Source: Candidatus Omnitrophota bacterium (GTDB taxonomy: Bacteria; Omnitrophota; Gorgyraeia; Zapsychrales; Fredricksoniimonadaceae). From it: a stretch of DNA of 62,610 bases. The stretch lies in assembly GCA_013287965.1 (NCBI GenBank), contig JABDCU010000008.1:1-62610 (forward strand). The letters run 5' to 3'. Positions 2 to 34,863 of this stretch are shown here, one piece after another. Below the pieces are notes generated by a model, which searched no databases, was not told where the DNA came from, and saw only the letters and a list, made by a program, of their open reading frames with translations. Numbering within the stretch: the stretch's first letter is position 1; every line of letters starts with the position of its first letter. Position numbers and translations under genes: made by a program.

Positions 2-337
2 TCGTATGTTTATATACAGGATTGTTTGGATGCCATATTTTTCAGCATGGATAAATTCAATGACAAGGTCAATATCCTCAACATCGGGGCCAATGAATAT
101 TGCCAGGTCAATGATTCCGTTGCCTGGATCACGGAATATCTGGGCGTTAAACCAAAACTTAAATATAGCGGCGGCGAGCGAGGGTGGATCGGGGACAATC
201 CTTTTATATTCCTGGACACTGCCAAACTCAATAACGCCGGCTGGAAGCCGAAATTAACGATCAAAGAATCTGTCATCAAGACCCTGGATTTTTTAAAAAA
301 TCATGATGCCTACAGTTGTCATACTTGCCGGCGGTGA
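2..337 (+). CDS. NAD-dependent sugar epimerase/dehydratase (extended SDR), C-terminal part; 5' end outside window
   Basis: Frame is open from the window edge (..SYVYIQDCLDAI..). GGERGWIGDNP and LDTAKL..GWKP motifs are typical of UDP-sugar 4-epimerase-like SDR C-termini. Overlaps the next gene by 35 nt. Confidence 0.7.
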   Translation, partial: SYVYIQDCLDAIFFSMDKFNDKVNILNIGANEYCQVNDSVAWITEYLGVKPKLKYSGGERGWIGDNPFIFLDTAKLNNAGWKPKLTIKESVIKTLDFLKNHDAYSCHTCRR

Positions 338-1010
338 GGCCACCCGTCTATCCCCTGTGACAAAAGCAATGCCCAAGTCCATGGTGGAATTAGAAGGCAG
401 GCCGTTCATTGCCCATCAGTTGGAAATACTCAAAAAAAATGACGTCAAACGTGTTGTCATTTGCGCGGGTTATCTTGGCCACATGGTGAAAGACTATATC
501 CACAAGGCAGGTGACCTTGGTCTAAAGGTGGAATTTTCCTTTGACGGCGATAAACTTCTTGGGACTGCCGGGGCCATCAGAAAGGCACTGCCGTTATTGG
601 AGAATGATTTCGCGGTCATGTATGGGGATTCTTATTTAACGGAAGATTTTCGTCCCATTGCCGGATTTTTCTTAAAAAGCGGTAAAAAAGGGTTAATGAC
701 CGTGTTTAAGAATGAGAACAAATGGGACATCAGCAATATCGTTTTTGATGGCGGCCAGCTCGTTAAATACGACAAGAAAAATTTGACCAAGGAGATGAAG
801 TATATTGATTACGGTTTGTTGTTTTTTAAAAAAGAGGTGTTTTCCAAGATCATTGAAGGGCGGGTGGCTGACCTGGCGGATCTATGCACGGAATTGGTCA
901 ATGGCGGCCATATGGCAGGATATGAAGTGAAGACGAGATTTTATGAGATAGGGTCGTTCCAAGGCCTGGAAGACACTAAGAAGTATCTTCAGAATACGAG
1001 CGAAGGATGA
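303..1010 (+). CDS. Sugar-1-phosphate nucleotidyltransferase (HddC/RmlA-like NTP_transferase fold)
   Basis: N-terminal VVILAGGEATRL (GxGTRL signature), GTAGA motif, ~235-aa single-domain size. Confidence 0.8.
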   Translation: MMPTVVILAGGEATRLSPVTKAMPKSMVELEGRPFIAHQLEILKKNDVKRVVICAGYLGHMVKDYIHKAGDLGLKVEFSFDGDKLLGTAGAIRKALPLLENDFAVMYGDSYLTEDFRPIAGFFLKSGKKGLMTVFKNENKWDISNIVFDGGQLVKYDKKNLTKEMKYIDYGLLFFKKEVFSKIIEGRVADLADLCTELVNGGHMAGYEVKTRFYEIGSFQGLEDTKKYLQNTSEG

Positions 1011-1174
1011 ATAGCTACTATGTTTTAGGAACATTCAGGGATTTTTGGCCAAATGTCTGCGAGGAATTACGTCAAAAATTTTCCAAATGAAGAGAATCTT
1101 TAGAAAATTTTTGACGTAAACCGAAGCAGACGGCCAAAATATCCCGTTCCGAAAACATAGTAGCTATTCATCCT
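1004..1174 (-). repeat. Long-hairpin repeat, copy 1 (inverted relative to copies 2 and 3)
   Basis: Perfect 23-bp outer stem (1004-1026 pairs with 1152-1174). Inner stem ttacgtcaaaaatttt / aaaatttttgacgtaa. Central 19 nt (1084-1102) is the reverse complement of taaagattctcttcatttg, found in copies 2 and 3. The 5' arm contains the stop codon of the nucleotidyltransferase gene. Confidence 0.85.
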
Positions 1175-1720: not shown

Positions 1721-2248
1721 ATGACCATGGACGTTTTGACAGCGGGCGCGGGGATATTTTCATTCCTTATTTTTTTATCCGTTCATTTCATTACATTTCG
1801 CTGGGTGCGCCCCGAAAATTTGTTGAGATCATTGCTTGTATGTGTGGTCACGGTGATGGGTTTCCCTGTTTTACTGATGGGATTTTTTTATATTTTAAAG
1901 GCGGCGGACGCAACACTGCAGGCGTGGATCTGTGCCGCCATCTTAGCATCGGTGCTGCAGGGTTTGCTGTGTTTTGTTTATGTCCTTTGCGTGTTCGGGC
2001 CCTATGAGACATCGGTGCGCATGCGCCTGGTGCGTGAAATTGCCTTGGCACCTCCCGGCGGCATCTCGATGGAGGAATTAGCCCGGTGTTATAACACGGA
2101 GATCATGGTCAATTTGCGCTTACAGCGGCTCTTGGGCTCAGGAGATATCATTGAAAAAGACGGCCTTTACCGGATCGGGCGGGAAGGGAATTTTTTCTTT
2201 ATTTTTGATGCCATTGCCGCGGTGCTAAAGAAATGGATCGCCCAATGA
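1721..2248 (+). CDS. Small membrane protein: 3 predicted TM helices plus C-terminal winged-helix-like tail (paralogue B)
   Basis: ATG at 1721 is preceded by GGGAGGG. The track start at 1691 would overlap the upstream gene. Tail is ..VRMRLVREIALAPPGGISMEELA..RLQRLLGSGDIIEKDGLYRI... Confidence 0.6.
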   Translation: MTMDVLTAGAGIFSFLIFLSVHFITFRWVRPENLLRSLLVCVVTVMGFPVLLMGFFYILKAADATLQAWICAAILASVLQGLLCFVYVLCVFGPYETSVRMRLVREIALAPPGGISMEELARCYNTEIMVNLRLQRLLGSGDIIEKDGLYRIGREGNFFFIFDAIAAVLKKWIAQ

Positions 2249-4479
2249 TCGTGGTTATTTATTCCATTTTATTGGCCATAGAAGTTTTGATCGTCGCTGT
2301 TCTTGTCTCCAATGCCATTCCCTTCGTGCATAATCCCTTCTGGGACACTGTATTGACCAATCAGCAAAGCAGCATATTTCCTAAAAGAGACCTATACCTG
2401 TACGCGTTTTTCTTATTAGTATGTTTTGGGACCTATGCGGGAATAGTGACCATCTTCCGCACGCGCCTCGAAAATCTCCAATGGCGTCAAAAATTAAACC
2501 ATTGGGCCGCAGCACAGGGGGCATGGGTTTTTATAGAGCTTTATGCTGCTTTTAAGATCATTGTGTACAATGACCCGCCTTGGGCCAGGATACTCCTTTA
2601 CGCAGGACTGACCGCTTCTTTTTTAAACAAGATATTTTGGCCTGAAATTTCTTATTTTACGCAAAAGAATTGGCCGCGCCTGGTGCTTTGGATTTCATCA
2701 AGGTGTTCGGGATGGCGCGGCAACGCGCTGGCGGTCTTATTTATTTTTGGTGTGATCTATATTCCTGACCCGCAGGCCGTGGTGGCCCAGCTTTATATGG
2801 GCGACCAGTTCCACACCTGGGACACTTCTTGTCTTGGAACGGTGTATGCCTTATTTAACGGCCTTCTTCCCGATGTGGATATTAATTCCAGATATGGGCT
2901 GGGGATGCCGGTGGTGATGGCAGGGATCATGAAATTCTTCGGAGGTTTTGATTACGTCAATGTTATCAAGGGGCTCTTGTGGATGGGGATCTTTTATTAT
3001 GTGACCTGGTTTTTTATCCTGCGACGGTGGTTTTTTAGCGGCCTGCTGGCTTTTGCCGCCATCCTCTTTGGCATGCGGGTGGCGATGTTCCCCATGTTCG
3101 TCATCCCATCGATCTGGAACGCGATGACGGAAAGTGTGATGAGATTTTGTTTTGACCCTTTATTTTTTTTGTTTTTATACAAACATGTGACCACCCATCG
3201 CAGGATATTTTTATGGGGCGCGTCCGTCATGGCCGGCATAGGGATGTTTTACATGTCCTCAACCGGCGCGTGGTTATTAATTGCTTTGTTAACCTATATG
3301 GGTATCCATTTTATTATCCCTAATATCCGTTCCCACATGGTCCGCTCCAAAGGCGATTATTTGTCCCTGGCGCGCATTATTTCTTTGGCGCCTCTTGTCA
3401 TGATCTTCCTGACGTGGCTGACAGTCAAAGGCAATGTTTTTAGGCCGGAATTCTGGAAGAACGTGATGGAATTCCACTTGATTTTTGCCAATGGGGTTGG
3501 CGGCGAATACCTCACCGCGGCCATCACGCAACGGAAAGAATTTTTATTCGCAGCCATCGGCTTGGGGCTGGTCTTGTTTTATGCCGGTTCCATTCTTTAT
3601 GCCATTCATCAGCTTTATTTTAAAAAGGCGGACCAAGGGCTTGTGTTTTCTATTCCCGTGGCTATTTATGGGCTGTGCCTGCAAACGTATTACATTGAAA
3701 TGGACTATTCATATTCCACCTTTACGCTTCCAGGTGTTTTTCTTTTGTTTTTTTGGATCGACCGCGCAAGCAAAGGACTGTCCCTTTTGAGGCAAAAACA
3801 AATCAGGGGGGTGCTGCTGGCGTCGGGTTTTTTCGCCTTGATCAGCGCGCCGATGTTCACGGCCTATCCTAATATTTTTAATTTGTCGCCCAACCCCATT
3901 GTTGACACCAATGTCTCCATCAAGCTCAGTAACGGAAAAATGTATTTTAATCAGCTGTACATTGATTTTCCGGAATGGGTGAAATTACCGGTCAATTCTT
4001 TAGGTGAAAAAGACGAGAAGCTTAAATATGAAAATGATTTTCAGACCGACGCGCAGTTGGTTGATTATTACAAACAGGAAACGGATTTTTCCAAGGACAC
4101 TGATCTGATCCGCCGGCTTACACCTGAAGGTGCGCGGGTGCCTTTGATCTCGAGCTTTGAGGTATTGATCCTCAGCGAGGCCCATCGCAAGCCGTTCTTT
4201 TATTATTTCCCTTTCTTGAGTTCCAAGCTGATGCGCACCAGGGCTTTTGTCACCTCGACACTTTATACTAAAACCCAGGTGGCCCAAATGCTTAGTCAAT
4301 TAGTACAAGCCAAACCTAAGTACATATTTATGGAGCGCATATTTTTAACGCCCCAGGTGCCCATGTGGTACGGCTATCAATTCGAAGACAGCATTGCTCT
4401 CATCAGATACATAGAAGCTTATTATCAACCGGACCAAACCGGCCAATTCCTCGTGGCCATGAAACGTAAGGAGGGATAG
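2233..4479 (+). CDS. Array paralogue 1 of 7: large polytopic membrane protein with soluble C-terminal domain, uncharacterised family (GT-C-like architecture is a hypothesis)
   Basis: Motifs KIFWPE, IPDPQAVVAQLYMGDQFHTWD, YGLGMP, GGFDY, AYPNIFNLSPNPIVD, LISSFEVLILSEAHRKPFFYYFP, GQFLVAMKRK. An alternative ATG at 2245 gives an ATGA overlap with the upstream stop. Confidence 0.9.
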   Translation: MDRPMIVVIYSILLAIEVLIVAVLVSNAIPFVHNPFWDTVLTNQQSSIFPKRDLYLYAFFLLVCFGTYAGIVTIFRTRLENLQWRQKLNHWAAAQGAWVFIELYAAFKIIVYNDPPWARILLYAGLTASFLNKIFWPEISYFTQKNWPRLVLWISSRCSGWRGNALAVLFIFGVIYIPDPQAVVAQLYMGDQFHTWDTSCLGTVYALFNGLLPDVDINSRYGLGMPVVMAGIMKFFGGFDYVNVIKGLLWMGIFYYVTWFFILRRWFFSGLLAFAAILFGMRVAMFPMFVIPSIWNAMTESVMRFCFDPLFFLFLYKHVTTHRRIFLWGASVMAGIGMFYMSSTGAWLLIALLTYMGIHFIIPNIRSHMVRSKGDYLSLARIISLAPLVMIFLTWLTVKGNVFRPEFWKNVMEFHLIFANGVGGEYLTAAITQRKEFLFAAIGLGLVLFYAGSILYAIHQLYFKKADQGLVFSIPVAIYGLCLQTYYIEMDYSYSTFTLPGVFLLFFWIDRASKGLSLLRQKQIRGVLLASGFFALISAPMFTAYPNIFNLSPNPIVDTNVSIKLSNGKMYFNQLYIDFPEWVKLPVNSLGEKDEKLKYENDFQTDAQLVDYYKQETDFSKDTDLIRRLTPEGARVPLISSFEVLILSEAHRKPFFYYFPFLSSKLMRTRAFVTSTLYTKTQVAQMLSQLVQAKPKYIFMERIFLTPQVPMWYGYQFEDSIALIRYIEAYYQPDQTGQFLVAMKRKEG

Positions 4480-6611
4480 TGGCGGACGTAAAGACAAAAA
4501 ATATTGTGGCCTACTCAGCGCTGGTCCTGGTGTTATCAGTGCAGCTTGTTATCATCCTCGCGGTCATCTCGAGCTTTATTCCTATCAAGCTTAACAGTTT
4601 TGTCCAGACACTCCTGCCTTTGTATTGGGACCAGGTGCGGCCGCACCGCCAGATGCAGATCTACGCGGTCTTCATTATTTTCGGGACCTTGGCCCAGGCC
4701 TGGGGCATGGTATTTTTAAAGAAACAGCTGCAGGATGATGGATTTGCCAAGGCCTTATGGCCCTTTGCCCTGATGCAATGGGCGTGGGTGCTGATAGAGG
4801 CGACGGCAGCCTTCAAGGTCTTTGTTTTTGGCAGTCCTGCCTGGGCCAAGTATTTTTTATATTTATCCCTGTGCGGGTGCGTTTTGAACACTATTTTTTG
4901 GCCGGAGTTTAAAAAGTGGTCAACACGCTCTTATCATTGGCTGGCCCAGCCTGCCGCGGTGTTATTGGTCAGCCGCATCGTGGACGTGCTGCTTGTGTGC
5001 GGTATCATTATTTTGCTGTGGCCGGCAGACATGGCTAAATTATTAGCGCATGTTTTTGCCTGGGATTATTTCCATCATTTGGACTTTTTCGTCATGTCTC
5101 CCGGCTGGGCCTATACGCACGGCCTGGCCATTAATAAGGACGTTGTCAGTGAATACAGTGTCGTGACCCCCGTGTTTTTAAGCACCGTCGCTAAATATTG
5201 CGGGGGCTTTAATTATGAGAATGTCATGCGTTTGATCGTTATCATGACCTTGGCCTATTATGCGGCGGTGTGGGCTTTTTTACGTGTTTGGCTCAAAAGC
5301 ACCTTGCTGGCTGCTTTCGGATTTTTGCTGGTGGTCAAACTCCAAATGTTCCACTGGGGCATTTTACCGGTGCTGTGGCGCTACCCCAGTGCCACGCCGG
5401 TGCGCTACCTTTTTGATCTCGTGCCCATCTTTTTGATATACAAACATGCCGAAGGCCTTGCCACAGGCGGGGCAGCCGGCAGCCGTGAAAAATATTTATG
5501 GCTGGCGGCTATGACCAGCGGATTGATGATGGCTTACACCATGGAGGTGGGAGTTTATTTGATCCTTGGCTTTTATGCCTACACCTTTATGCTTTTGACC
5601 TTGCCGCAGTTAAGGACAAAACTTTTTCATTTTCCCCGCGATATCCGCAAAATGACCGGGCTTTTTGTCCTGCCGTTCATAGCTGCTTTTGCCTTGTTAT
5701 GGATGGTGGGAGGCCGCGCGGTTGTGACCGGCGAATTCTGGAACAACACCACTGAGTTCGCACGGCTTTTCCTCAACGGCTTTGGCTCATTGCCGTATTG
5801 GGACGGGCTTAACGACAAACAGTTTTTTGCTTTTTGCATGGGATTTATCATCCCGGCGGTTTATGTCCTGACCATCATGATCGTCGGGGCATTTTTGTAT
5901 TTGCGCCAAATAGACACTCCCCAAATGTTCATCGTCTACGCGGCTGTCTATGGCTTGGGGATGTACCATTATTTTGTTTACCGCTCCGCGGTGACCAGTT
6001 ATTACGTGGTCTGCGTTCCCTTTGTTTTTGTATTGTGTTTTTGGCTCCAGCAGATCTTAAAACCAGTGGCCCTGCAATTGCGCCGGATCATTTTGTCCGT
6101 GCTGGTGCTGTTGACCTTGGGGGCCTTGGTAACGGGGTATTTATTTACCGTTTATCCTAATGTGCTTAACCTGTCAGGGCTTGACTTGGCCCCGGAACTG
6201 GCTTTTTATCAAAAAGAATTTCATTTTGAACCTGACGCGGCCTTGATCGACCGCCTGACAGGGCAAGATGAGCGGGTGGCCTTGATCAGCAGTTTTGAGA
6301 CGAGAATACTGATGGAGGCTGACCGCAAACCATTTTTTTATTATTTTCCCATGATCAATCCCGAGCCCATGGAAAATTTGGACTTTAAGGGTACGCAATT
6401 GTTCACCATTGACCGTGTGCGAAGGACATTGGGACAGTTAGAAAATGAAAAACCTGGCCTTGTGTTCATCGAGAAGAAATTGTTCTCAGGCCAATTGCCC
6501 GCGGCCTATTATCAGCATTTTCAAACATTGACGGTCTTAGTCCGGTATTTGACCCAGAACTATGCGCCGTATGATCAAGGCCAATTTCTGGTGGCATTAA
6601 AGCGCAAATGA
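4479..6611 (+). CDS. Array paralogue 2 of 7 (short-linker subtype)
   Basis: GTG start overlaps the paralogue 1 stop (TAGTG), with AAGGAGGG upstream. Motifs TIFWPEFK, FAWDYFHHLD, GGFNY, KLQMFHWG, YPSATPVRYLFD, VYPNVLNLS, LISSFETRILMEADRKPFFYYFP, GQFLVALKRK. Confidence 0.9.
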   Translation: MADVKTKNIVAYSALVLVLSVQLVIILAVISSFIPIKLNSFVQTLLPLYWDQVRPHRQMQIYAVFIIFGTLAQAWGMVFLKKQLQDDGFAKALWPFALMQWAWVLIEATAAFKVFVFGSPAWAKYFLYLSLCGCVLNTIFWPEFKKWSTRSYHWLAQPAAVLLVSRIVDVLLVCGIIILLWPADMAKLLAHVFAWDYFHHLDFFVMSPGWAYTHGLAINKDVVSEYSVVTPVFLSTVAKYCGGFNYENVMRLIVIMTLAYYAAVWAFLRVWLKSTLLAAFGFLLVVKLQMFHWGILPVLWRYPSATPVRYLFDLVPIFLIYKHAEGLATGGAAGSREKYLWLAAMTSGLMMAYTMEVGVYLILGFYAYTFMLLTLPQLRTKLFHFPRDIRKMTGLFVLPFIAAFALLWMVGGRAVVTGEFWNNTTEFARLFLNGFGSLPYWDGLNDKQFFAFCMGFIIPAVYVLTIMIVGAFLYLRQIDTPQMFIVYAAVYGLGMYHYFVYRSAVTSYYVVCVPFVFVLCFWLQQILKPVALQLRRIILSVLVLLTLGALVTGYLFTVYPNVLNLSGLDLAPELAFYQKEFHFEPDAALIDRLTGQDERVALISSFETRILMEADRKPFFYYFPMINPEPMENLDFKGTQLFTIDRVRRTLGQLENEKPGLVFIEKKLFSGQLPAAYYQHFQTLTVLVRYLTQNYAPYDQGQFLVALKRK

Positions 6612-6635
6612 CACCTGACGAAATGTCAGGTGTCA
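6609..6635 (+). other. Perfect 11-bp stem / 5-nt loop hairpin in the only sizeable intergenic gap of the array
   Basis: tgacacctgac-gaaat-gtcaggtgtca. The left arm includes the TGA stop of paralogue 2. No T-run follows, so this is not a canonical intrinsic terminator. Confidence 0.6.
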
Positions 6636-6669
6636 TCCTGAGCCAACGGGCGAAGGATCTCTACAACTT

Positions 6670-8892
6670 ATGAACCCTGTTATCCCTTTTTCCCTGGTCA
6701 TTTTTTGTGTCACGGTGCAGGTGTGGCTGGTATTGATCGCCTTGTCCGGTGTCATACCGCTGACGGACGCCGTAAGCACGGCGGTGTGGCCTGAGTGGCA
6801 GTATTTTGTGCGCCCCGAGAGGGATGCTTTATTGTTCCACTGTTTTGTAGGGCTGGCTTTGTTGGCCCAGGCCATTGGTATTTGGTCAATGCGGCATCAA
6901 TTAAACCAAGCCTCTTTTACCAAAACAGTGATGCCTTTTTTAGCGGCGGAGATGGTGTGGACCGCCCTGATGCTCAATGCCGCTTTTAAAGTGATCGTTT
7001 ATCATGACCGTCCATGGCTGGCCCAGGATGCTTTTATATTCCTTTCAGCAGGGGCATTGGCCAGCAAGGTGTTTTGGCCGGAGCTTAAAAGCTGGGCAGA
7101 GTGTTTTTATCAGAAGATCACGACATGTTCGTTTGGTATTAAAGCTGATGTGGCGGCATGCCTTGGTTTGGTCGTGCTGCTGTATGTTCCCGATGACAGG
7201 GCAGTGCTGGCCCGGATGTTTTTCGGCAATAATTTTCAGCATTTTGACAGTTTTACGGCACCTGCCTGGGCTTTTACCAAAGGTGCTGTGTTAAATGTGG
7301 ATGTGATGACCGAGTATGGGATCGGCATCCCGGTGATGATGTCCTGGTTTGCCAAGCTCACGGGCGGCTTTAGCTATACGCATCTATTATGGTTTTGGAT
7401 GGGAGGGACGATCACCTACTTTATTTTGTGTTTCGTATTTTTACGCCGCTGGCTGGGGTCTTTTGCCCTGAGCCTGATGGCGACCTTGCTGGCCATCAAA
7501 TTCCAAATGTTCCATTCCGGGGTCACCCCGTTTATTTTTACATTGCCGAGTGCCACGGTGGTGCGTTATTTTTGGGACATCCTTTTCTTTCTGTCCCTGC
7601 TGGGGCATTTGCGCACCTTGCGTAAGCGTTATTTGTTCAGGGCAGCTGTTTGCTGCGGAGTGCAGATCTTTTTCATGACGACCAGCGGCTATTGCCTGAC
7701 GATCGCTTTTATCGCGTATCTGACGGCTTTCATGGTCTTGGAACATTTAAGGCCTTTGGTATGTGAAAGTATCACGGAGGCTGTCAGGTTTTGCAGCTTT
7801 CTTTTCGTCGTACCTTTAACGACCTTAGGTTTTCTGGTTCTGACCCAGGGCGCCCATTTATGGACAGGGGAGTTTTGGTCCAATATGCAGGAATTTAATA
7901 ATTATTTCTTGTCCGGCTTTGGTTTGATGCCGATGTACGAGACCCTGCAGAACCATGAAACCATGGCAGGGTTAATGGGATTTTTTATTCCGGTTGTTTA
8001 TATGGGCACATTTTTAGTCACGGCAGGACTTTTGTTCTATCGACAAGTTCCACGGGAAGACCTCATGGCCGTGGTCCTTTCTTTGTACGGCATGACCTTG
8101 TACCACTATTATATCGGCCGCTCCGCACCGACGAGCTATTATGTGGTTTGTGTTCCCTATGTGTTTATTTTATTTTTTTGGCTGCAGCGATGGCTTTTGG
8201 TTTTAAAACAGGACAGGCGCCGGCTGATACTTCTGTCCTTGGGAGCGGTCATTGTTTATGCTTTGCTCACCAATCATACGTATTTGGCCTATCCTAATAT
8301 TTTTAACGTTTCACGAAACCCCATTGTTGATCCGTTGGTGGTAAGCCCTATACCTGATGGGCGTTCTTATTTTAACCAAAGCGTCAGCAAGCTCACCGAA
8401 GACCAGAAACTGCCTGCCAATTCTTTAGGCAATAAGGATGAGGGCATCAAATACGAAAAAGATTTTAAGACAGATGCCCGGCTCGACCAATATTACGACC
8501 AGGAATCTGATTTTGGCCGGGACGCGGCGTTGATCGCGGCTTTGACCAAGCCCGCAGACGCAGTGCCTTTATTAAGCAGTTTTGAAATTAAAATGCTGAT
8601 ACAGGCGGACCGCCGGCAATTCTTTTATTATTCGCCGATCCTGCTGGCCCGTCCCATGCGCATGCGCACCTTTCCTAACAGCACGATGTACAGCCTCATC
8701 CACGCGCGCAGAACACTGCACCAGCTTCAAGAAGCCAAGCCGGAATATATATTTATGGAGAAGGTCTTTTTGCAGGCGCCGGGTTTTGCCAATTTTAAGG
8801 ATGCTTCCCTGGCGTCGGTACTTAACTATGTTTTTGAGAATTATTCGCCGGATGCCCAGGGCCAATACCTGATAGCGATGAAGCGTAAATGA
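6670..8892 (+). CDS. Array paralogue 3 of 7 (long-linker subtype)
   Basis: Motifs WPEWQYFVRPERD, KVFWPELK, YVPDDRAVLARMFFGNNFQHFD, KFQMFHSG, AYPNIFNVSRNPIVD, LPANSLGNKDE, LLSSFEIKMLIQADRRQFFYYSP, GQYLIAMKRK. Confidence 0.9.
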   Translation: MNPVIPFSLVIFCVTVQVWLVLIALSGVIPLTDAVSTAVWPEWQYFVRPERDALLFHCFVGLALLAQAIGIWSMRHQLNQASFTKTVMPFLAAEMVWTALMLNAAFKVIVYHDRPWLAQDAFIFLSAGALASKVFWPELKSWAECFYQKITTCSFGIKADVAACLGLVVLLYVPDDRAVLARMFFGNNFQHFDSFTAPAWAFTKGAVLNVDVMTEYGIGIPVMMSWFAKLTGGFSYTHLLWFWMGGTITYFILCFVFLRRWLGSFALSLMATLLAIKFQMFHSGVTPFIFTLPSATVVRYFWDILFFLSLLGHLRTLRKRYLFRAAVCCGVQIFFMTTSGYCLTIAFIAYLTAFMVLEHLRPLVCESITEAVRFCSFLFVVPLTTLGFLVLTQGAHLWTGEFWSNMQEFNNYFLSGFGLMPMYETLQNHETMAGLMGFFIPVVYMGTFLVTAGLLFYRQVPREDLMAVVLSLYGMTLYHYYIGRSAPTSYYVVCVPYVFILFFWLQRWLLVLKQDRRRLILLSLGAVIVYALLTNHTYLAYPNIFNVSRNPIVDPLVVSPIPDGRSYFNQSVSKLTEDQKLPANSLGNKDEGIKYEKDFKTDARLDQYYDQESDFGRDAALIAALTKPADAVPLLSSFEIKMLIQADRRQFFYYSPILLARPMRMRTFPNSTMYSLIHARRTLHQLQEAKPEYIFMEKVFLQAPGFANFKDASLASVLNYVFENYSPDAQGQYLIAMKRK

Positions 8893-8896
8893 TCTT

Positions 8897-11146
8897 ATGG
8901 GACAAACAAAGAATATTTTAACATTGGTGCTGATCGCTTTTGCCCTGAGCATACAGGCATGGCTGATATCTATTTTTGCCTTGCAGTATCTTCCTTTAAA
9001 AGACACGCTTTCCCAGACTGTTTTTCCGGAATGGCGGTACTTTGTCAGGCCCGAGCGGGATGCCCTGCATTTTCATATTTTTGTTTTTGTCGCCTTGGGC
9101 TTGACAGCCATGGTCCTTTGGAAGATGCGCTTGAAACTGGCAGATGCTTTGTTAATGCAAAAAGCACGCGTGTTTTTAGTATTGGAGATGATCTGGACAT
9201 TTTTGCTTTTAAGCGCGGCTTTTAAAATGATCGTTTACGCCCAGCGTCCGCAATTAGCGGCCCGTGTTTTTTGGGTCATTGCCGCAGTAAGTGTCGCCGG
9301 TAAAATATTCATTAAACCTTTGAGCGTGTTTTTACACAGGGCTTACCAATACCTGCACAGCCCATCAAGCCGCCTGGCGTATTTAGCTGAAATATCTTTC
9401 CCTGTTCTTTTGGTTTTGGTCCTTTATGTCCCCGATGCCAGGGGAGTGATGGCCCGTGATTTTTTGGGGGAACAATATCATCATTGGGACAGCGCGGTGA
9501 TGGCACCAGGCTGGGCGTATTTGAGCGGTTCTGTGTTAAACGTGGATGTCATTTCCCAATACGGTTTAGGCCTGCCTATCTTTGTGGCCCAGTTGACAAA
9601 ACTTTTGGGAGGATTTACTTACGCAAATGTGCTTCGGGTCATTATGGGTGTGAACATTATTTATTATTTGGGATGGTATTTGCTTTTGCGTTCCTGGCTT
9701 AAAAATACGCTGATCGTCATCGCCGGCATGCTCTTCGCGGTCAAGATCCAGATGTTCCATAGCGGGGTCTACCCGATAGTTTTTACCTATCCCAGCGAGA
9801 CCATTTTAAGGTATATGTTTGATGTGGCCGTATTCGCCTTGATGCTGGGGCATTTAAGAACGGGCAAGTATTTTTATTTATGGGGCGGCTCCATTATTTG
9901 CGGCATTGCTGTTTTTTACATGACCACCACCGGCCTATGCCTGGCATTGACTTGGGGTGTTTATTTGGGAAGTTTGGCTGTTTTTCCTGGTCTGCGGTCC
10001 CGATTTTTGCCTGATCGCCGTAGTTGGCTGGCTTTGTCAGCCTGCCTGCCTGCTGTCGCGGCTGCCATTTTTGCCTGCCTTTGGTTTGCCGAAGGACAGC
10101 ATATGTTCACTGCTGAATTTTGGCGCAATACCGAGGAATTCAATAATTATTTCCTGAATTATTTCGGTACTGTTCCCATGGACCAAAATATCACTGACCA
10201 TAATTATTTATTTTTTTGGATGGGTTTGTGGATGCCTCTTGTCTACTTGGGGACTTTTCTTATGGTGATGAGTCTTTATTTTTGGCGCAAACTGTCAGTA
10301 GAGCACCTGTTGGCGGCTTTTATTGCTTTTTATGGGATGACCCTTTATCATTATTTCGTTGCCCGTTCCTTATCAACCGGCTTTTATAATGAAGGCTTGC
10401 CGTACGCCTTTATATTATGCTTTTGGCTGGCCTTGGGGCTCGAAAAAGCAGCCAAGCGCACCCGTCGTAATATTACTTTGGCCTGTATCGTCATCAGTGC
10501 GTACGCGCTTTTGACCAATTATAATTATATTGCTTATCCGAATATATTTAATTTATCCCGTCACCCTTTGACAGACCCGCTGGTCTTGAGCCCTTTGCCG
10601 GATGGCAGGTCGTATTTCAATCATCTCTACAGCCAATTGCCGATGGATAGCCGGCTGCCCAGCAACTCTTTGGGAGAAACAGATGAGAAATTGCGCAGTG
10701 AGAAGGATTTTTCCAGCGACGATGAAATGAACAAGTATTACAACCAGGAATTTGATTTTAGCGAAGATGCCGGCCTTATTGATGCGCTTGTGCCACCGCA
10801 AGGCAAGGCAGCGGTGGTCAGCAGTTTTGAGACCAAGATCTTGATGGATGCCAAACGCCCGCCATTCTTTTATTATGTACCCTTGATCATTTCAAGGCCC
10901 ATGCATATGCGTACCATGGTGGTGACAGCGTTATATACGCAGGACCATTTGCTCAGGACCATTGCCCAGATCAAGGCCCAAGCGCCGGAATATATTTTTA
11001 TTGAGAGGATATTCCGTCGAGAAAGCATTGACCTGGTCACTTATAAGGACGGGTCGGCTTTTTTGGCCTTGATGCATTATATCAACGCGCATTATGAGAA
11101 TTTCCGGGAAGGGCTTTTCTTAATGGCTTTAAAACGTAAGGTTTAA
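8897..11146 (+). CDS. Array paralogue 4 of 7 (long-linker subtype; closest by eye to paralogue 3)
   Basis: Motifs FPEWRYFVRPERD, YVPDARGVMARDFLGEQYHHWD, KIQMFHSG, AYPNIFNLSRHPLTD, LPSNSLGETDE, VVSSFETKILMDAKRPPFFYYVP, GLFLMALKRK. Confidence 0.9.
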   Translation: MGQTKNILTLVLIAFALSIQAWLISIFALQYLPLKDTLSQTVFPEWRYFVRPERDALHFHIFVFVALGLTAMVLWKMRLKLADALLMQKARVFLVLEMIWTFLLLSAAFKMIVYAQRPQLAARVFWVIAAVSVAGKIFIKPLSVFLHRAYQYLHSPSSRLAYLAEISFPVLLVLVLYVPDARGVMARDFLGEQYHHWDSAVMAPGWAYLSGSVLNVDVISQYGLGLPIFVAQLTKLLGGFTYANVLRVIMGVNIIYYLGWYLLLRSWLKNTLIVIAGMLFAVKIQMFHSGVYPIVFTYPSETILRYMFDVAVFALMLGHLRTGKYFYLWGGSIICGIAVFYMTTTGLCLALTWGVYLGSLAVFPGLRSRFLPDRRSWLALSACLPAVAAAIFACLWFAEGQHMFTAEFWRNTEEFNNYFLNYFGTVPMDQNITDHNYLFFWMGLWMPLVYLGTFLMVMSLYFWRKLSVEHLLAAFIAFYGMTLYHYFVARSLSTGFYNEGLPYAFILCFWLALGLEKAAKRTRRNITLACIVISAYALLTNYNYIAYPNIFNLSRHPLTDPLVLSPLPDGRSYFNHLYSQLPMDSRLPSNSLGETDEKLRSEKDFSSDDEMNKYYNQEFDFSEDAGLIDALVPPQGKAAVVSSFETKILMDAKRPPFFYYVPLIISRPMHMRTMVVTALYTQDHLLRTIAQIKAQAPEYIFIERIFRRESIDLVTYKDGSAFLALMHYINAHYENFREGLFLMALKRKV

Positions 11147-11149
11147 TTG

Positions 11150-13741
11150 ATGAAGAAATTATTCCAATCAAACATTATCACCGCGCTTGTCTTGTTCGCG
11201 GCCGCGGTCTTGGTCAGCATAGCCGTCTACCCTGAGGTTTTTATCAGCTCCAAGATGAGTGTCGTGATCTGGTCTGATTATTGTGTCGAATACGCGCCAA
11301 CCTTTATTTTAACCACCTTCCTATACCAGGGCGGGCTTCAGCTGTGGGATTTTTTCGCGCAGATGCCGTATTTTCACACCTACGCCGTGCTGGGATTATT
11401 TAAATTCCCCAACGTGGTGACGGCTATTTCATATTATCTGCTGGCGCCTTTCACAGAAGATTCCAGCCATCTTTTCCACCAGGTTTTTATCTGGGGCTAT
11501 TTGATGACACTTTTATTCTTAAGGGTCACAGGGATATTCCTGTTGTTAAAAACAGTGACGAAAAACCGCCCCTTTTTAAGTGCCGGCACCGTGCTCTTTG
11601 CCGTATTCTTTAGTCAAATGGCGTTCTTAAGGGGAACGCCCTATATGAGTTATTTTCCTTTAGGCATGTATTTTGTCGTGCGCCTGTTTCAAGACCTGCA
11701 GCTGCGTTTTCTGGTCGCCCTATTTTTCTTTTTTATGATCGTGCTCAGCACAGAATTGCTTCACGGCGCGTATTTATATTTGCCCATGCATTTTTTTATC
11801 ATCGCGGGCATTTTATGGCGGGTTTTCTTTAAGCCCGCCGTGGACAGGCCTTTTTGGACTTATTGGCGATGGAAGGACATGGCATGGGCCATCCTGGCAG
11901 CGGCCCTGATGATGGCGCCGTATTTGTTCATCATGAAATTTTCGTTGAATGATCTTGCCTTTGGCCAGGACAATAGCCGCATCGCGCATCCTTTCAGCCC
12001 GCAATGGTATTTTCAAAATCCCCAATTAGATCTAGGCAGCCCCGGTACTTTTTTCGGGGCGCTCTTGAATATACAAAAGGTGGATGCCTTGTTTTATGTA
12101 GGCCTGTCCTTTCTTTTTTTGGCGCTGGCCGGGTTTATTTTAAACCGCCATAAATTAAAGTGGTTTTTTGCCTTAGGGGTGTTCTTTTTATGGCTTTTAA
12201 GTTTTCCCCGTGAAGGGATCCATCTCGGCCTTATCGCGCACTGGGTCAATGTTTTGACAAACCCCCTAAAAGCCTTACCCCGTTCCTACCGGTTTACCTG
12301 TGAAGGGATGCTTCCCTATTTATTGATGCCGTTGGCTGTGATGGGCATAGAGGCCATGGTGGAGCTCTTTAAAGGAAAAAAATATCCTGCCGCGGCCTTG
12401 GGTTCTTTGGCCGGGATGACGTTTTTACTTGTATTGAACGGTATTTTTATAGTACCTCCTGAGGTTTCTGCTTACCTGATCGCGTGCGGCTTATTGCTGA
12501 TAGGGGGGATTGCCCGGGTCCATTTTAGGAATTCCCCGCGGGCGAGGAGTTTTCTCGTTGGGACCATCTGTTTTTTGGCAGTCATTGATATTTGCTTTAT
12601 TATTTATCAGTCAAAACACACCTTTGAGCGTTTCTGTTACCGTAAGCCCACTATTTTGGATGCTGCCCCGCAGGCGGGTGTCGTGGAGTATGATTATGAA
12701 AACCCGTCTATTTTTCCTTACAGGAATTCGTACACCTTCCATTTTTCTTATAATGACGAACTCGATATATGGTTCCCTCACGGCCTGTCGTCGGACCTGC
12801 ACCATGTCATCAACCAGGCGTTGAATTTTACTTTTCTCAACGGCTATAATCCCAGGCACAAGGAGTTTGCGAAATGGCTGAATGACCCGCAAATGCTGAC
12901 CTATTTAACGCAGAACAATGAATTCATTTTCCTGGCCCAGTCAGCGATCAAGGCCTCACCCGGGGCCTTAGGCCGGATCTGTTCAGCCGGGCTCGCCCGT
13001 CAGGTGGTGACAGTAGAAGATCCCAAGGGGAACTTGAATTTAGCGGACCAATGGCCGGGCAGCATCACGCCCAAACCCCAGGAAGATCTGCAGTACAGTC
13101 AAGTGGCAGGGACAATAGATGATAATACCCAACCCAACCAGTATCTTCAGACGGGGGGCATGATCATCTATACCCTGTATTTACCTTCTGATTTTCCCGG
13201 TCATTTGGCATCATCATGGTTTCCCGCCGAACAGAGGTATTTACGGTTCTTTGTCGAGGGAGAAGGAGGGCAATGGCGGGAACTCCAGGCAGCCCAAGGC
13301 GAATTGATCAGGCCATATACCTTTGATGTGCAGAATATCAAGCAAGGTGAATTGAAGGCAGCTTTTTCCAAGAATGATTTTCCCATGCACCACAAATGCG
13401 TTTTATTTTATCCTTCCAGTGAGAACCAGGGTGTTGAAAAAGTGTGGCGCAAGCAATTTGATAACTTAGGGACCATCTACAGGGCCAAGAGGGATGGCTG
13501 GTGGGTCGGCCATTATCCGTATGATCCTAAATGGAGGATATCTGTTGACGGCAAACCAGTGCCTTATTACCGGGTGGATAAAAGTTTTATCGGTTTTCCG
13601 CTGGGTCGCGGAGAGCATAAAATATTGGTCCAGTATTGGCCGCATTCGCCGTTGAGGATATTTCTTTTTATTTCCGCCCTGTTAACGACCTTGGGACTTC
13701 CCCTCTTGATTTTTTTAGCGTTGAAATGGGAGAATAAATGA
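11150..13741 (+). CDS. YfhO-like large membrane protein (GT-C-type candidate) interrupting the paralogue array
   Basis: Many TM helices. C-terminus ..ISVDGKPVPYYRVDKSFIGFPLGRGEHKILVQYWPHSP.. plus a final TM matches my memory of the YfhO family C-terminal pattern. It shares none of the array motifs. ATG at 11150; the track starts at TTG 11147. Confidence 0.55.
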   Translation: MKKLFQSNIITALVLFAAAVLVSIAVYPEVFISSKMSVVIWSDYCVEYAPTFILTTFLYQGGLQLWDFFAQMPYFHTYAVLGLFKFPNVVTAISYYLLAPFTEDSSHLFHQVFIWGYLMTLLFLRVTGIFLLLKTVTKNRPFLSAGTVLFAVFFSQMAFLRGTPYMSYFPLGMYFVVRLFQDLQLRFLVALFFFFMIVLSTELLHGAYLYLPMHFFIIAGILWRVFFKPAVDRPFWTYWRWKDMAWAILAAALMMAPYLFIMKFSLNDLAFGQDNSRIAHPFSPQWYFQNPQLDLGSPGTFFGALLNIQKVDALFYVGLSFLFLALAGFILNRHKLKWFFALGVFFLWLLSFPREGIHLGLIAHWVNVLTNPLKALPRSYRFTCEGMLPYLLMPLAVMGIEAMVELFKGKKYPAAALGSLAGMTFLLVLNGIFIVPPEVSAYLIACGLLLIGGIARVHFRNSPRARSFLVGTICFLAVIDICFIIYQSKHTFERFCYRKPTILDAAPQAGVVEYDYENPSIFPYRNSYTFHFSYNDELDIWFPHGLSSDLHHVINQALNFTFLNGYNPRHKEFAKWLNDPQMLTYLTQNNEFIFLAQSAIKASPGALGRICSAGLARQVVTVEDPKGNLNLADQWPGSITPKPQEDLQYSQVAGTIDDNTQPNQYLQTGGMIIYTLYLPSDFPGHLASSWFPAEQRYLRFFVEGEGGQWRELQAAQGELIRPYTFDVQNIKQGELKAAFSKNDFPMHHKCVLFYPSSENQGVEKVWRKQFDNLGTIYRAKRDGWWVGHYPYDPKWRISVDGKPVPYYRVDKSFIGFPLGRGEHKILVQYWPHSPLRIFLFISALLTTLGLPLLIFLALKWENK

Positions 13742-15744
13742 AGCGCAATATCCTCTATTTATCCGCGCTTGTTTTCGTCTTATCTTTGCAAGTACTGATC
13801 ATCCTGGCTTTTATTTACCAGTTCATCCCTTTGAAGGCGGCCGCGATCACCGAAGATGTTCCTGCGTCACTGCTCAAGGTGTTCCAGCCTAACCGCAATT
13901 ATTTTTTCTATCATGCCTTTATTGCCGCGGCGATCATAGGGGAAATGCTGGCCCTTTATCTATACCGTAAACGTTTGGAGCATGCCGACGTGGCAGGGGA
14001 GGTCCGGGACTTTTTGCTCTGCGAGACGGTATGGGTGTCGTGGCAGCTTTTCGCGGTGTTCAAGGTCCTGCAATACAATAATCCCGGGTGGGCAGAAGTT
14101 TTATTATATGCCGGTTTTGCCGCCGCCTTGCTGGCAAAGATCTTTTGGCCGGAATTAAAGCGCGGCCTTGCTTTTTTAAAGGATTACCTTCGGCGGGAAA
14201 TACCGGTGTCATGGCGTAAATTTGCGGACGCGGGTATTATTTTTATCCTGTTGGCGGTGATCGCGGTCCCTAATGGCGAAAAAGCGTTGCTGCGCATGGC
14301 CCTTGCCGACGGTAATGATCATTTTGACCAATGGCTGATGGCGCCGTTGTGGGCCTACCATAAAGGGCTGATACCTGCCTTGCAGTTTTTTAATCCGTTA
14401 AATTGGGGAGTGCCGGTCTTGGTCCACGCGCTGGTGAGTTTGATGGGTAGCGTGACGTGTGCGCATGTGATCGCAGTCCTTTGTTTATTGGCCATCGTGT
14501 ATTATGCGGTTTTTTATTATTTGTTGCGTTCCTGGTTAGGGACCTTGACAGCCATTTTTGGCGTGCTGTTGGCGGTAAAGCTGCAGATGTTTAACATAGG
14601 CGTTAACCCGTTGATCTGGGCTTTCCCGGCGCAGAGCATGCTGCGGCATTTATTCGACGTGGCGGTATTTTTCTGCCTTTTGTTTTATGCCCAAGGGCGA
14701 GGGGAGCTGTTCCTTTGGCTGGCCGCGGCAGCGGTGGGGATATCTTTGAGTTTTGTTTTTGATACCGGCGTGTATTTGCTGGTGGCTTTGTACGCGTATG
14801 TGGCCGCGCTTATGTCGTTCAAAGATACCCGTTGTTCATTGTGCCCAACCCCAAGGCAGTGGCGTAAGGTTTTAGGATTGGCTTTTCTGCCGTGGTTGGT
14901 GATGATCGCCGCGTTATTCTTTTGCATTGGCCCTGCTGTCCTGCATAGGGCATTTTGGATGGAGAGCTTCAAAGATGTTCCCCGTTGGCTCGCCGGTGCT
15001 GATTCCATATCGGTGTATTCTTGCTTAAGGGACAGGAATTTTTTTGCGTTCTTTGCTTCATTTTTTCCGCCTTTGCTCTACGCGGCAGGCATGGCAGCAA
15101 CGGTCAGCATGGTCTATTTTCGTTCCTGGAAAAGTGAAAAGTTATTCTTGGTCCCTTTAAGTGTTTATGGCTTAGGAGTCTATGCCCATTTTTTATGGCA
15201 TGCCAGCATCAACTACTATTACATGGCGCCTTTACCTTTGGTTGGCTGTGTCTGTTTTTGGATGACCCAGTACCTCGACGGGTTTAAAAATGCCCAACGG
15301 CGTTTAGTTAAATTGATCTTGGCCCTGCTTACCTTGATCGGCTTATTCACCAATGTCATTTTTACTTACTATCCGAATGTTTTTAACATGGCCGGGCAAG
15401 TATGGGACCGGCAAATGGCGTATTACCAGGCCAATTTTAATTTTAAGAATGATGCTGATCTCATCCGCCAAGCGACATCGCCTGATGAGCGGGTGGCCTT
15501 GATCAGCGGTTTTGAAATACAAGTATTGCTGCAAGCTGACCGGGCACCTCTCTTTAATAATAGCCTGGCGCTGATGGACCAATTGGATAAGGCCAAGCCG
15601 CGGCAGGTGTTTGTTAATAAAAGCATATTGAACATGGCCAATAACCCAGCAATTAGCGCATTGACCGATTACTTAAAAGCGCATTATCAATACACAGGCA
15701 AACAAAGCGATAACCTGGCCTTATTAGAGAAGACCCATGAGTAG
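13738..15744 (+). CDS. Array paralogue 5 of 7 (short-linker subtype, most divergent)
   Basis: ATGA overlap with the YfhO-like stop. Motifs KIFWPELK, LRMALADGNDHFDQW, KLQMFNIG, YYPNVFNMAG, LISGFEIQVLLQADRAPLFNN. Lacks the terminal KRK. Confidence 0.9.
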   Translation: MKRNILYLSALVFVLSLQVLIILAFIYQFIPLKAAAITEDVPASLLKVFQPNRNYFFYHAFIAAAIIGEMLALYLYRKRLEHADVAGEVRDFLLCETVWVSWQLFAVFKVLQYNNPGWAEVLLYAGFAAALLAKIFWPELKRGLAFLKDYLRREIPVSWRKFADAGIIFILLAVIAVPNGEKALLRMALADGNDHFDQWLMAPLWAYHKGLIPALQFFNPLNWGVPVLVHALVSLMGSVTCAHVIAVLCLLAIVYYAVFYYLLRSWLGTLTAIFGVLLAVKLQMFNIGVNPLIWAFPAQSMLRHLFDVAVFFCLLFYAQGRGELFLWLAAAAVGISLSFVFDTGVYLLVALYAYVAALMSFKDTRCSLCPTPRQWRKVLGLAFLPWLVMIAALFFCIGPAVLHRAFWMESFKDVPRWLAGADSISVYSCLRDRNFFAFFASFFPPLLYAAGMAATVSMVYFRSWKSEKLFLVPLSVYGLGVYAHFLWHASINYYYMAPLPLVGCVCFWMTQYLDGFKNAQRRLVKLILALLTLIGLFTNVIFTYYPNVFNMAGQVWDRQMAYYQANFNFKNDADLIRQATSPDERVALISGFEIQVLLQADRAPLFNNSLALMDQLDKAKPRQVFVNKSILNMANNPAISALTDYLKAHYQYTGKQSDNLALLEKTHE

Positions 15745-20202: not shown

Positions 20203-20523
20203 ATGGCAACGATAGAAGATTTTAAGAAAATTGAATTGGTGGTAGCCCAGATCAAAGAGGTCAAGGAACATCCCAACGCGGACCGTCTTTATGTCCTGCA
20301 GGTGGACACGGGAAAGGATGTGCGGCAGATCGTCGCAGGGATCCGCAAAGCGTATACGCCCGAGCAGCTGGTCAATCGCCGGGTCATCCTGATCGTTAAT
20401 ATGGATCCCGCAGTTATTCGTGGGGAAACATCCAACGGCATGCTCTTGGCAGCATCGGATGTCAACGGCATGTCCTTGCTTGCGCCGGACAAAGAAATGA
20501 TGTTAGGCAGCATCGTCAAGTAA
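20203..20523 (+). CDS. Stand-alone tRNA-binding domain protein (CsaA / MetRS C-terminal EMAP-like OB fold)
   Basis: FKKIELVVAQIKEVKEHPNADRLYVLQVDTG..QIVAGI.. and SNGMLLAA are the classic tRNA_bind domain pattern. AGGAG lies upstream. Confidence 0.75.
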   Translation: MATIEDFKKIELVVAQIKEVKEHPNADRLYVLQVDTGKDVRQIVAGIRKAYTPEQLVNRRVILIVNMDPAVIRGETSNGMLLAASDVNGMSLLAPDKEMMLGSIVK

Positions 20524-20530
20524 TGCTTGT

Positions 20531-20716
20531 GAATATGGTTAAGCAGGTGTTGCTCCCGAAACGGGATATTTTTGCTGATCTGCTCAGTTTACAGCTCGAA
20601 TGTTCTAAAGATTCCCTTCATTTGGAACATTCTCGCTGTAAATCTTCGCAGATATGGAAAATTTCTCAGCAAAAAATCCCTATTGTTTCGTCCACAACAC
20701 CTGCTTAACCATATTC
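20531..20716 (+). repeat. Long-hairpin repeat, copy 2
   Basis: Perfect 22-bp outer stem (20531-20552 pairs with 20695-20716). Core ctcccgaaacgggatatttttg.. is shared with copy 3. The central loop (20606-20624) differs from copy 3 by 1 nt. The inner stem sequence differs from copies 1 and 3 but stays complementary. Confidence 0.85.
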
Positions 20717-20733
20717 AAAACTATTAGAAAACT

Positions 20734-34771: not shown

Positions 34772-34851
34772 TTGCTACTTACTTATTCCTGGATAAGTTA
34801 GGAGCAAAAACACGCATTTTGGCTTCAAAAATTATCCCTTCGTCTGTTTTG
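34730..34851 (+). repeat. ~122-nt imperfect long hairpin spanning the murJ 3' end and stop codon
   Basis: The 39-nt left arm (34730-34768) pairs with the 38-nt right arm (34814-34851) at roughly 32 positions. An inner 14-nt pair (ttgctacttactta / taagttaggagcaa) matches 12 of 14. The segment gggataatttttg resembles the core of the hairpin-repeat family. Confidence 0.7.
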
Positions 34852-34863
34852 ACGCATCATTAA

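Follow-up and report, generated by a model that had tools for sequence, protein, structure and literature searches.

Family A, as we call it here, is a large and apparently previously undescribed family of hairpin repeats of about 170 bases in the intergenic DNA of Candidatus Omnitrophota. Three of its copies lie in the 62,610-nt stretch of Omnitrophota DNA that was analysed here as a whole (the window). The elements form covarying hairpins with a conserved asymmetry and a strand-specific mismatch spectrum, they are present or absent at orthologous sites, they re-use the same junctions, and they take part in nested insertions. We give about an even chance to the reading that family A is a lineage-specific, non-autonomous, REPIN-like hairpin replicator, whose folded single strand is mobilised by an enzyme acting in trans and whose copies are co-transcribed in operons; in this reading, recognition as a single strand, the kind of enzyme and any influence on RNA are inferred. 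To our knowledge, the mobile DNA of these uncultivated bacteria is essentially undescribed.

Hairpin copies and other repeats in the window

A preliminary description of the window had reported three copies, and their coordinates and quoted sequences were confirmed, with copy 1 inverted relative to copies 2 and 3 (Table 1). Each copy indeed folds into one long end-to-end hairpin (z −14 to −18). Folded as RNA, copies 1, 2 and 3 reach minimum free energies of −96.2, −92.9 and −101.4 kcal/mol (z −18.5, −15.3 and −15.7 against dinucleotide shuffles), and DNA folding of the complementary strands gave z −16.0 for copy 1 and −13.7 for copy 3. For the apex pattern, 0.00 occurrences are expected in the window and exactly three were found. 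The substitutions and the 1-nt indel that were said to be mirrored between the arms of copies 2 and 3 are present, and copy 1 does have a perfect outer stem of 23 bp. Copy 2 has an 11-nt insertion in its 3' bulge and a CTCG/CTCG block in its inner stem; this inner stem had been taken as fully complementary, but the block contains two pyrimidine–pyrimidine mismatches and recurs in other copies. Conservation of the apical segment, also part of the preliminary description, holds among the three window copies and in a search that requires the apex, but family-wide the apex is the most variable module. Similarly, the proposed start of all copies within 10 nt of an upstream stop codon, or overlapping it, applies to copy 1, which overlaps the stop of the NTP_transferase gene, and to copy 2, which begins 7 nt past the stop codon at 20521–20523, but not to copy 3, where the upstream ORF stops at 58593–58595, 56 nt before the hairpin, with a fragment of another repeat in between.

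Table 1. Positions of family A copies, neighbouring genes and other repeats in the window
Feature	Position	Strand	Remarks
Family A copy 1	1004–1174	−	171 nt; core (covariance model) 1025–1153, minus strand; apex 1083–1103
Family A copy 2	20531–20716	+	186 nt; core 20555–20692; apex 20605–20625
Family A copy 3	58652–58839	+	188 nt; core 58676–58815; apex 58726–58746
NTP_transferase gene, upstream of copy 1	303–1010		stop codon 1008–1010 inside the outer stem of copy 1
tRNA-binding domain protein gene, upstream of copy 2	20203–20523	+	Pfam PF01588, E 3e-29; synteny with empty sites
DNA absent from relatives at the copy 2 junction	20526–20733	+	copy 2 plus 5 nt 5' and 17 nt 3'; ATG (possibly ATGC) on both sides
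CxxCxxCC / YkgJ-type cysteine-cluster protein gene, downstream of copy 2	20734–21246	+	anchor for the empty-site search
Family D hairpin repeat	34730–34857	+	between two co-directional genes; ends ACGCAT; upstream ORF 33377–34771 terminates inside
Family B fragment	58611–58642	+	between upstream stop and copy 3; resembles one terminal inverted repeat (CATTGTAAGRGATAAATTTGTTCTTT)
Family C hairpin repeat	58850–59010	.	directly 3' of copy 3, unrelated to family A; inverted repeat; RNA fold −92.5 kcal/mol, z −8.0
Orphan copy of family A outer-stem 3' end	59017–59039	+	23 nt (CAACGCCGGCTTGACCATTTACG); one indel and one substitution relative to the end of copy 3

The surroundings of copy 3 contain several further repeats. 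Homologues of the adjacent family C hairpin adjoin family A copies in loci L092, L037 and L011 too, and the orphan outer-stem end beyond it was probably left by an earlier insertion into this junction. The family D hairpin elsewhere in the window is related to a family D element found at the junction of copy 2 in locus L031. A tRNA scan of the window gave zero genes.

Family size and hosts

A first scan for exact matches to the apex, with one genome per species, gave 29 loci, of which one (L026) is a chance match; the 28 real loci all belong to Candidatus Omnitrophota MAGs. The exact apex match accounts for 30 copies in Omnitrophota MAGs, and one MAG holds at least 13 copies. Some of the element-bearing Omnitrophota MAGs carry the label 'Planctomycetales'. 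A covariance model built on 29 cores detected three extra copies within the same loci, with a different apex on the same scaffold, and about 60 more came from a scan of metagenomes with an apex-free scaffold pattern and the model searches that followed it. The covariance-model search that had been proposed in the preliminary description thus enlarged the family, which together with the scaffold searches now stands at about 95 copies from Omnitrophota MAGs and metagenomes. Another 44 or so metagenome pattern matches had no model match, and most of these are chance matches inside unrelated coding sequence.

Rfam gave zero matches for the whole window at the gathering threshold, and an E-value scan around copy 3 returned just sub-threshold miRNA-precursor models, which are generic hairpin models. 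Viral contigs scanned with the apex pattern and plasmid and phage collections searched with blastn gave no match, and a literature search that combined Omnitrophota with repeats and hairpins brought up nothing relevant.

Anatomy of the hairpin

From base to tip, the hairpin consists of an outer stem, a scaffold with bulges and a loop, an inner stem and an apex. The outer stem measures 26–33 bp, is often perfect, and falls into at least three unrelated subfamilies with many variants. The conserved scaffold is made of three short helices (GGRAT/ATYCC, TTTTNGCC/GGCNAAAA and GTCTGC/GCAGAC), between which lie conserved unpaired parts. Two of these are bulges, one of 7 nt (YKAWTGT) and one of 4 nt (WTTT), and they occupy the 3' arm on the strand as read here. 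In addition there is a conserved UNCG-like internal loop, CTNCGG opposite NNCCTYG. These bulges and loops show little or no variation across copies. A reading of the CUGAAUGU bulge as a K-turn or C/D box was rejected, because the would-be G.A positions covary as Watson–Crick pairs. The inner stem between scaffold and apex is variable, and at least seven unrelated versions of the apex exist across the family. Inner-stem and apex modules are shuffled among copies, and the CTCG/CTCG block of copy 2 was seen with three apex types. The element is clearly asymmetric, with model scores of about 150 bits on one strand versus about 40 on the other.

Hairpin lengths are tightly clustered, mostly at 165–181 nt. 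Ends based on minimum free energy and on lenient palindrome extension overran into the flanks, and a stricter extension together with the pairwise end of similarity was used instead. In the closest non-orthologous copies, similarity stops 0–3 nt from the hairpin base, so that the repeat unit is the hairpin itself. Just outside many of the copies there is a weak motif, with TGCGT in 14 of 71 3' flanks (bottom strand) and GCATG or CGCAT in 8–9 of 71 5' flanks; the family C and D copies that were examined also have TGCGT- or ACGCAT-like ends. The stems are A+T-rich (GC 0.33–0.43).

Covariation of the stems

The covariation of the stems that had been claimed from three copies holds in the larger set. 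In an alignment of 29 copies, 98.2% of the cells are paired and both sides have changed in 20 of 48 pairs; in the alignment of 73 copies to the model, the values are 97.4% and 27 of 48 pairs. The latter alignment contains 346 double-change cells against 96.9 ± 10.3 after shuffling, and none of 500 shuffles reached the observed number; because the alignment is a fit to the model and the copies, being related, are phylogenetically non-independent, these are strong indications and p-values are indicative only. When the partners were slid by 1–3 columns as a control, 27–80 double-change cells were counted versus the 346 observed. By our own tally from the 73-copy table, transversion swaps (AU to UA or GC to CG, for example) make up about half of the alternative pair types. 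Neighbouring positions switch as blocks, e.g. AAAA/TTTT to TTTT/AAAA, and one-sided intermediates are rare. These data support the conclusion that the stems keep pairing rather than sequence.

Mobility

Family A elements are mobile. At the junction of copy 2, the tRNA_bind and CxxCxxCC genes of three related genomes (L032, L033 and L036) overlap directly (TAATG or ATGA) with no element between them, and in a fourth relative (L031) the junction is filled by a hairpin of a different family (D); a family A model search of L031–L036 found no copy. A comparison of flanks against all others, together with pairwise alignments, yielded further pairs of filled and empty sites: L021a and L021b versus L048 and L020, L060 versus L041 and L147, L097 versus L102, L098 versus L091 and L037, and L041 versus L147. 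Several of these additional empty sites are stop/start overlaps as well. For copies 1 and 3, exact-protein look-ups of the neighbours, aimed at empty sites in the same species, gave no recorded protein.

Junctions are also re-used. At one of them L003 has an element in one orientation, while L051 and L089 have an element of another subfamily in the opposite orientation; these must be independent insertions. Moreover, elements of family F, which have terminal repeats of their own, are nested inside family A copies in L045, L079/L093, L078 and L050, and in L011 a family C hairpin encloses a family A copy plus a family B element. The contrast with mobile elements that the preliminary description had implied does not hold in view of these filled and empty orthologous sites, of separate insertions into one junction and of nesting.

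The inserted DNA is often 5–40 nt longer than the hairpin. Possible target duplications amount to 0–4 nt (ATG/ATGC, AT, TAT, T), in flanks that are 80–88% identical and at junctions that are inexact; no consistent length of target-site duplication was found among the filled/empty pairs, and no fixed target motif is common to the empty sites compared. TGCGT was considered as a target motif and rejected, as a comparison of L097 with L102 shows that the element itself brings it in. At two shared sites where orientation and outer-stem type agree, the element is about 93–97% similar (by eye) versus 67–74% for the flanks, and the outer stem shows matched changes there. Such a higher similarity of the element than of its flanks fits selection and recent re-insertion equally, and re-insertion does occur, as at the L003 junction.

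Genomic context and strand asymmetry

The neighbours of family A are ordinary genes, e.g. for SecA, MetH, glycosyltransferases, Asd and MnmE. Between genes, 35 copies are sense, 16 antisense, 2 convergent and none divergent; if copies with one callable neighbour are included, 51 are sense and 25 antisense. Gaps to the neighbouring genes have medians of 20 nt on the side of the upstream stop and 75 nt on that of the following start. In L018 and L021, a single gene is bracketed by two copies in the same orientation, and the bracketed genes are housekeeping genes, e.g. for a GT4 glycosyltransferase and an E1 dehydrogenase. The search for a partner gene covered 4–10 kb around each copy: all-against-all clustering of 912 nearby ORFs, with Pfam searches of the largest clusters and of the bracketed genes, detected no recurrent transposase or recombinase, and the largest protein clusters were housekeeping. 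In the flanks listed, no T-run follows the hairpin on either strand. An intrinsic terminator was rejected because of this lack of a T-run and the A+T-rich stems.

The location of nearly all copies between co-directional genes, close behind a stop codon and with a 2:1 sense bias, argues for a host-selected cis-acting RNA between cistrons that would act in stabilisation, in RNase III-type processing or as a scaffold for protein binding, and for which mobility would be just the means of delivery. Conserved unpaired nucleotides combined with covarying stems are likewise the classic signature of a structured RNA, and the greater conservation of the scaffold than of the coding flanks at shared sites is explained equally well by purifying selection in the host. 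However, one third of the copies are antisense to their neighbours, Rfam has no matching family, the hairpin lacks a following T-run, and the different families, subfamilies and orientations at the same junction point to turnover and not to a fixed function.

The mismatches within the helices also bear on this question. Apart from the conserved apical T.G, which was set aside, isolated transition mismatches on the strand as read here comprise 80 A.C cells (49 contexts) versus 23 G.T cells (19 contexts), and an A.C on this strand corresponds to a G.T wobble on the complementary one. The A.C:G.T ratio is alike in copies that are sense (49:15) and antisense (27:8) to their neighbours, and the asymmetry is therefore intrinsic to the element. 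A mutation bias linked to transcription or replication was rejected as its cause, as the asymmetry is unchanged by orientation to genes. Of 72 copies, 49 fold more stably as the complementary strand (mean 2.6 kcal/mol with RNA and 1.6 with DNA parameters), with Wilcoxon p-values of 4e-4 for RNA and 6e-6 for DNA parameters, calculated on copies that are non-independent. As the asymmetry does not flip with the direction of transcription, sense copies place A.C instead of G.U in the mRNA strand. A purely mRNA-level function is disfavoured, since the wobbles are not in the mRNA strand of sense copies, and we regard a cis-acting RNA as an unlikely explanation of family A as a whole.

In roughly two thirds of the copies, the strand that appears to fold runs antisense to the genes on either side, and GC skew is positive; the folding strand is probably on the leading-strand template. 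This placement is contrary to what the IS608 model predicts for active copies and counts against the explanation by a mobile single strand that we prefer.

Selection, templated copying and possible transposition as a duplex

Arm-to-arm templated repair, which had been put forward as an alternative to selection, accounts for part of the pattern. In L005, a sequence exactly complementary to the opposite arm has taken the place of the conserved internal loop, and the transversion swaps, the mirrored blocks and the mirrored indel also fit; templated copying is the simplest explanation of the mirrored indel and the block swaps. On the other hand, the asymmetric bulges and loops are conserved, and a whole subfamily has an uncompensated block, CCTCACAC opposite TATTCGG, that is stably inherited in several genomes. 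Wholesale homogenisation of the arms is excluded by the persistence of bulges, internal loop and CCTCACAC block across genomes. Templated copying and selection probably both contribute.

If complementarity of the arms arose by replication template-switching or palindrome repair, family A might be an ordinary MITE that is mobilised as double-stranded DNA by a DDE transposase. It is small and multicopy, it shows presence and absence at orthologous sites, it occurs close to the MITE-like family B with its clear terminal repeats, and the weak TGCGT/ACGCA motif is common to families A, C and D at or near their tips; the symmetrised loop of L005 and the other signs of templated copying would find a ready place here. 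Yet the ends are the most variable and the centre the most conserved part, the reverse of a terminal repeat bound by a transposase, and templated repair would erase the asymmetric bulges and internal loops that nearly all copies keep. The inheritance of the uncompensated CCTCACAC block and the lack of a clear target duplication are further points against it, and at the level of the duplex the strand-specific mismatch spectrum has no explanation. A duplex MITE thus seems quite improbable to us. It is very hard to believe that the copies are independent small-RNA genes with a promoter and terminator of their own, a reading suggested by long stable hairpins with conserved loops and by promoter-like TATAAT or TACAAT abutting some copies, because these promoter-like sequences are family B termini that are unfixed in position and orientation and missing from most copies, while the unit ends at the hairpin base with no terminator and copies overlap stop codons.

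A folded single strand as the proposed mobile form

The REPIN-like reading that we favour could work as follows. A folded single strand, most likely of DNA, would be recognised and moved by a structure-specific enzyme supplied in trans, for which REP/REPIN with RAYT, IS200/IS605 ends with TnpA, and attC with IntI offer analogues of enzyme and substrate. Such an enzyme might read the conserved mid-stem scaffold with its unpaired bases (YKAWTGT, WTTT and the UNCG-like loop), while in the outer stem and the apex pairing alone would be needed, and these parts would drift in matched pairs. The matched changes may have come about by ordinary compensation and by occasional templated copying from arm to arm. 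Copies that keep the scaffold would go on spreading, which might hold it near constant across genomes. Insertions would survive just in the few bases between consecutive genes of an operon, and copies that are co-transcribed there should form long RNA hairpins, with possible side effects on the processing or stability of the mRNA.

A more far-reaching variant is that family A, perhaps with families C, D and F, is a substrate of a non-RAYT type of structure-specific mobilisation that reads the scaffold on one folded strand, cuts at a fixed distance and inserts precisely in stop/start junctions and hairpin tips, or else that the host has domesticated the scaffold and keeps it as an RNA or DNA module for protein binding. 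A molecular ruler is suggested because the unit ends at the hairpin base and its length is tightly constrained while its ends vary freely; we nevertheless consider this variant doubtful.

The approximately 95 copies represent a natural mutagenesis set that separates the parts that must pair from those that must keep their sequence and marks the relevant strand, which makes the search for a partner enzyme or RNA-binding protein directly testable. If this partner is not an enzyme of the RAYT type, family A would stand for a new kind of structure-guided mobility. Furthermore, the few bases between overlapping genes are colonised again and again by several hairpin families that are unrelated to one another, which bears on operon evolution in Omnitrophota, on gene calling (as repeats can supply stop codons) and on the assembly of MAGs.

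Comparison with known systems

Family A departs in at least one tested defining feature from attC sites, IS200/IS605 derivatives, classical MITEs, terminators and Rfam families. It resembles attC in being an imperfect hairpin with strand-marking extrahelical bases, a variable terminal structure and, as proposed here, recognition by structure. Integron attC sites sit at the upstream gene's stop codon or span it, and family A copies start at or just past stop codons; the two same-orientation copies around one gene in L018 and L021 could likewise recall a cassette. However, the R/L boxes (AAC/GTT) are absent from the stem base, where sequences such as GAATAG/CTATTC or GGACAG/CTGTCC occupy the place of the R''/R' core sites (RYYYAAC ... 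GTTRRRY). The element is also longer than the attC range and has an additional, variable outer stem, the copies are dispersed in both orientations and 19–38 kb apart with no tandem cassette arrays, the bracketed genes are housekeeping, and there is no integrase among the annotated neighbours. We thus find it very improbable that family A is an integron-like marker of gene cassettes on which a tyrosine recombinase acts.

With IS200/IS605 elements and the transposase-less PATEs, family A has in common an orientation bias, the apparent lack of an obligatory target duplication and, if our reading is correct, strand-specific recognition that depends on a hairpin. Those elements, in contrast, have distinct left and right hairpins, both small and subterminal, and insert on the 3' side of a fixed target of four or five nucleotides, whereas family A forms one end-to-end hairpin and no fixed target was found at its sites. 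ERIC, Correia/NEMIS, RUP and BOX are imperfect palindromes of 100–200 bp in transcribed intergenic regions that fold in the mRNA. They differ by their conserved terminal repeats and, usually, a TA duplication, and covariation around an asymmetric core is not their hallmark. In family A, no terminal inverted repeats of the kind that define MITEs are common to all copies, the outer stems belonging to three unrelated subfamilies.

The closest likeness in our preferred explanation is to REPINs and their RAYTs. Compensatory changes on the two sides are common in REPIN hairpins, one example of which consists of two conserved 16-mers 71 bp apart (PMC3116915), and TnpA-REP binds one folded single-stranded REP strand specifically, with the bulge being required (PMC8266576). 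Family A is also extragenic, non-autonomous, multicopy and hairpin-forming, its arms compensate each other, and both systems combine long-term persistence with turnover. The arrangement of conserved and variable parts is reversed, however: in REPINs the ends (the REPs with their GTAG) are conserved and the spacer is variable, while in family A the middle of the stem is conserved and the ends and apex vary. Family A is longer as well (about 170 nt), and the GTAG hallmark of REPs is not general in it, GTAGC being present in 6 of 71 5' flanks. REP–RAYT systems include a cognate single-copy RAYT gene (Y1/HUH) in the genome, typically with the repeats on its flanks; in the 4–10 kb read around each family A copy, no transposase-like cluster recurs. 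Membership of family A in the REPINs is thus not established. Since compensatory change has already been described for REPINs (PMC3116915), it is not new to mobile hairpin repeats, and the general kind to which family A belongs, that of non-autonomous hairpin repeats with compensatory evolution, is already known; what is new is a large family of this kind with an unusual organisation.

Repeats sharing junctions with family A

The junction occupied by copy 3 of family A, the hairpin repeat present three times in the window, also holds further elements. The family C hairpin found there folds as RNA at -92.5 kcal/mol (z -8), and its homologues also adjoin family A copies at L092 and L037, two of the loci from other Omnitrophota MAGs and metagenomes (L-numbers). 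At L011, one family A copy and one family B element are enclosed between family C arms. Beyond the family C hairpin in the window lies an orphan outer-stem fragment of family A: a copy of the 3' end that a single indel plus a single substitution separate from the end of copy 3 and that has the same length as the corresponding end of copy 2. This orphan is probably the leftover of an earlier insertion at the copy 3 junction.

Family B has clear terminal inverted repeats (CATTGTAAGRGATAAATTTGTTCTTT), within which outward-facing TATAAT/TACAAT-like hexamers are located, and the L011 element carries GCGTGC on either side. Solo family B ends adjoin many family A copies, copy 3 among them. Family D hairpin repeats have ACGCAT or GACGCAAGG at their end. 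In L031 such a repeat sits at the exact junction that is filled by copy 2 in the window, and the window copy of family D contains the terminus of the ORF upstream of it (33377-34771). A further neighbour of family A copies is family E (…TAGCGGGTGTCATTAGCCTCGATATTAAGGCGCGCACGG…).

Coordinates of accessory repeats and of the paralogous ORFs
Feature	Sequence	Position	Size	Remarks
Eight consecutive paralogous ORFs	window	2233-20184	~670-860 aa	+ strand
Family D hairpin repeat	window	34730-34857
Family D hairpin repeat	L031	2335-2500
Family B, solo end	window	58611-58642		beside copy 3
Family B element	L011	459-690	~230 bp	MITE-like
Family C hairpin repeat	window	58850-59010	161 nt	immediately 3' of copy 3; unrelated to family A
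Orphan family A outer-stem 3' end	window	59017-59039	23 nt	beyond family C hairpin
Family E, G+C-rich structured repeat	L003	~7046-7200
Family E	L027	~6862-7012
Family E	L082	~1833-1944

Changes within family A copies

Family F, with terminal repeats ATATTCCCTATT…AATAGGGGATAT, lies within family A copies at L045, L079/L093, L078 and L050 (around matches to the scaffold pattern), where its insertion splits or replaces the inner stem and apex. Family A has many apex types, some of which may have arisen through such nesting. A different change affects L005 (1-111, minus strand). Here, and in no other family A copy, the conserved asymmetric internal loop has given way to a sequence exactly complementary to the opposite arm (GTAAACCGAAGCAGAC), a hallmark of template switching from arm to arm.

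Host assignment and genomic context

Family A is common to Omnitrophota MAGs and to seven loci (L004, L010, L013, L014, L022, L025, L028) from MAGs labelled 'uncultured Planctomycetales bacterium' (binchicken assemblies), a label that may be a taxonomic misassignment. Between positions 1 and 60000 of the window, GC skew is positive in all 5-kb bins (+0.04 to +0.09) and the long ORFs are nearly all on the + strand, which fits a location of the entire window within a single replichore, the + strand being the leading strand.

The eight paralogous ORFs between copies 1 and 2 have repeated DNA blocks in common. Those tested matched no family in Pfam or NCBIfam, and one ORF gave a weak, far sub-threshold match to a PgfM1-type glycosyltransferase tail. 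Other Omnitrophota loci also contain comparable groups of paralogs that lack annotation, e.g. 13 members in three loci around L068.
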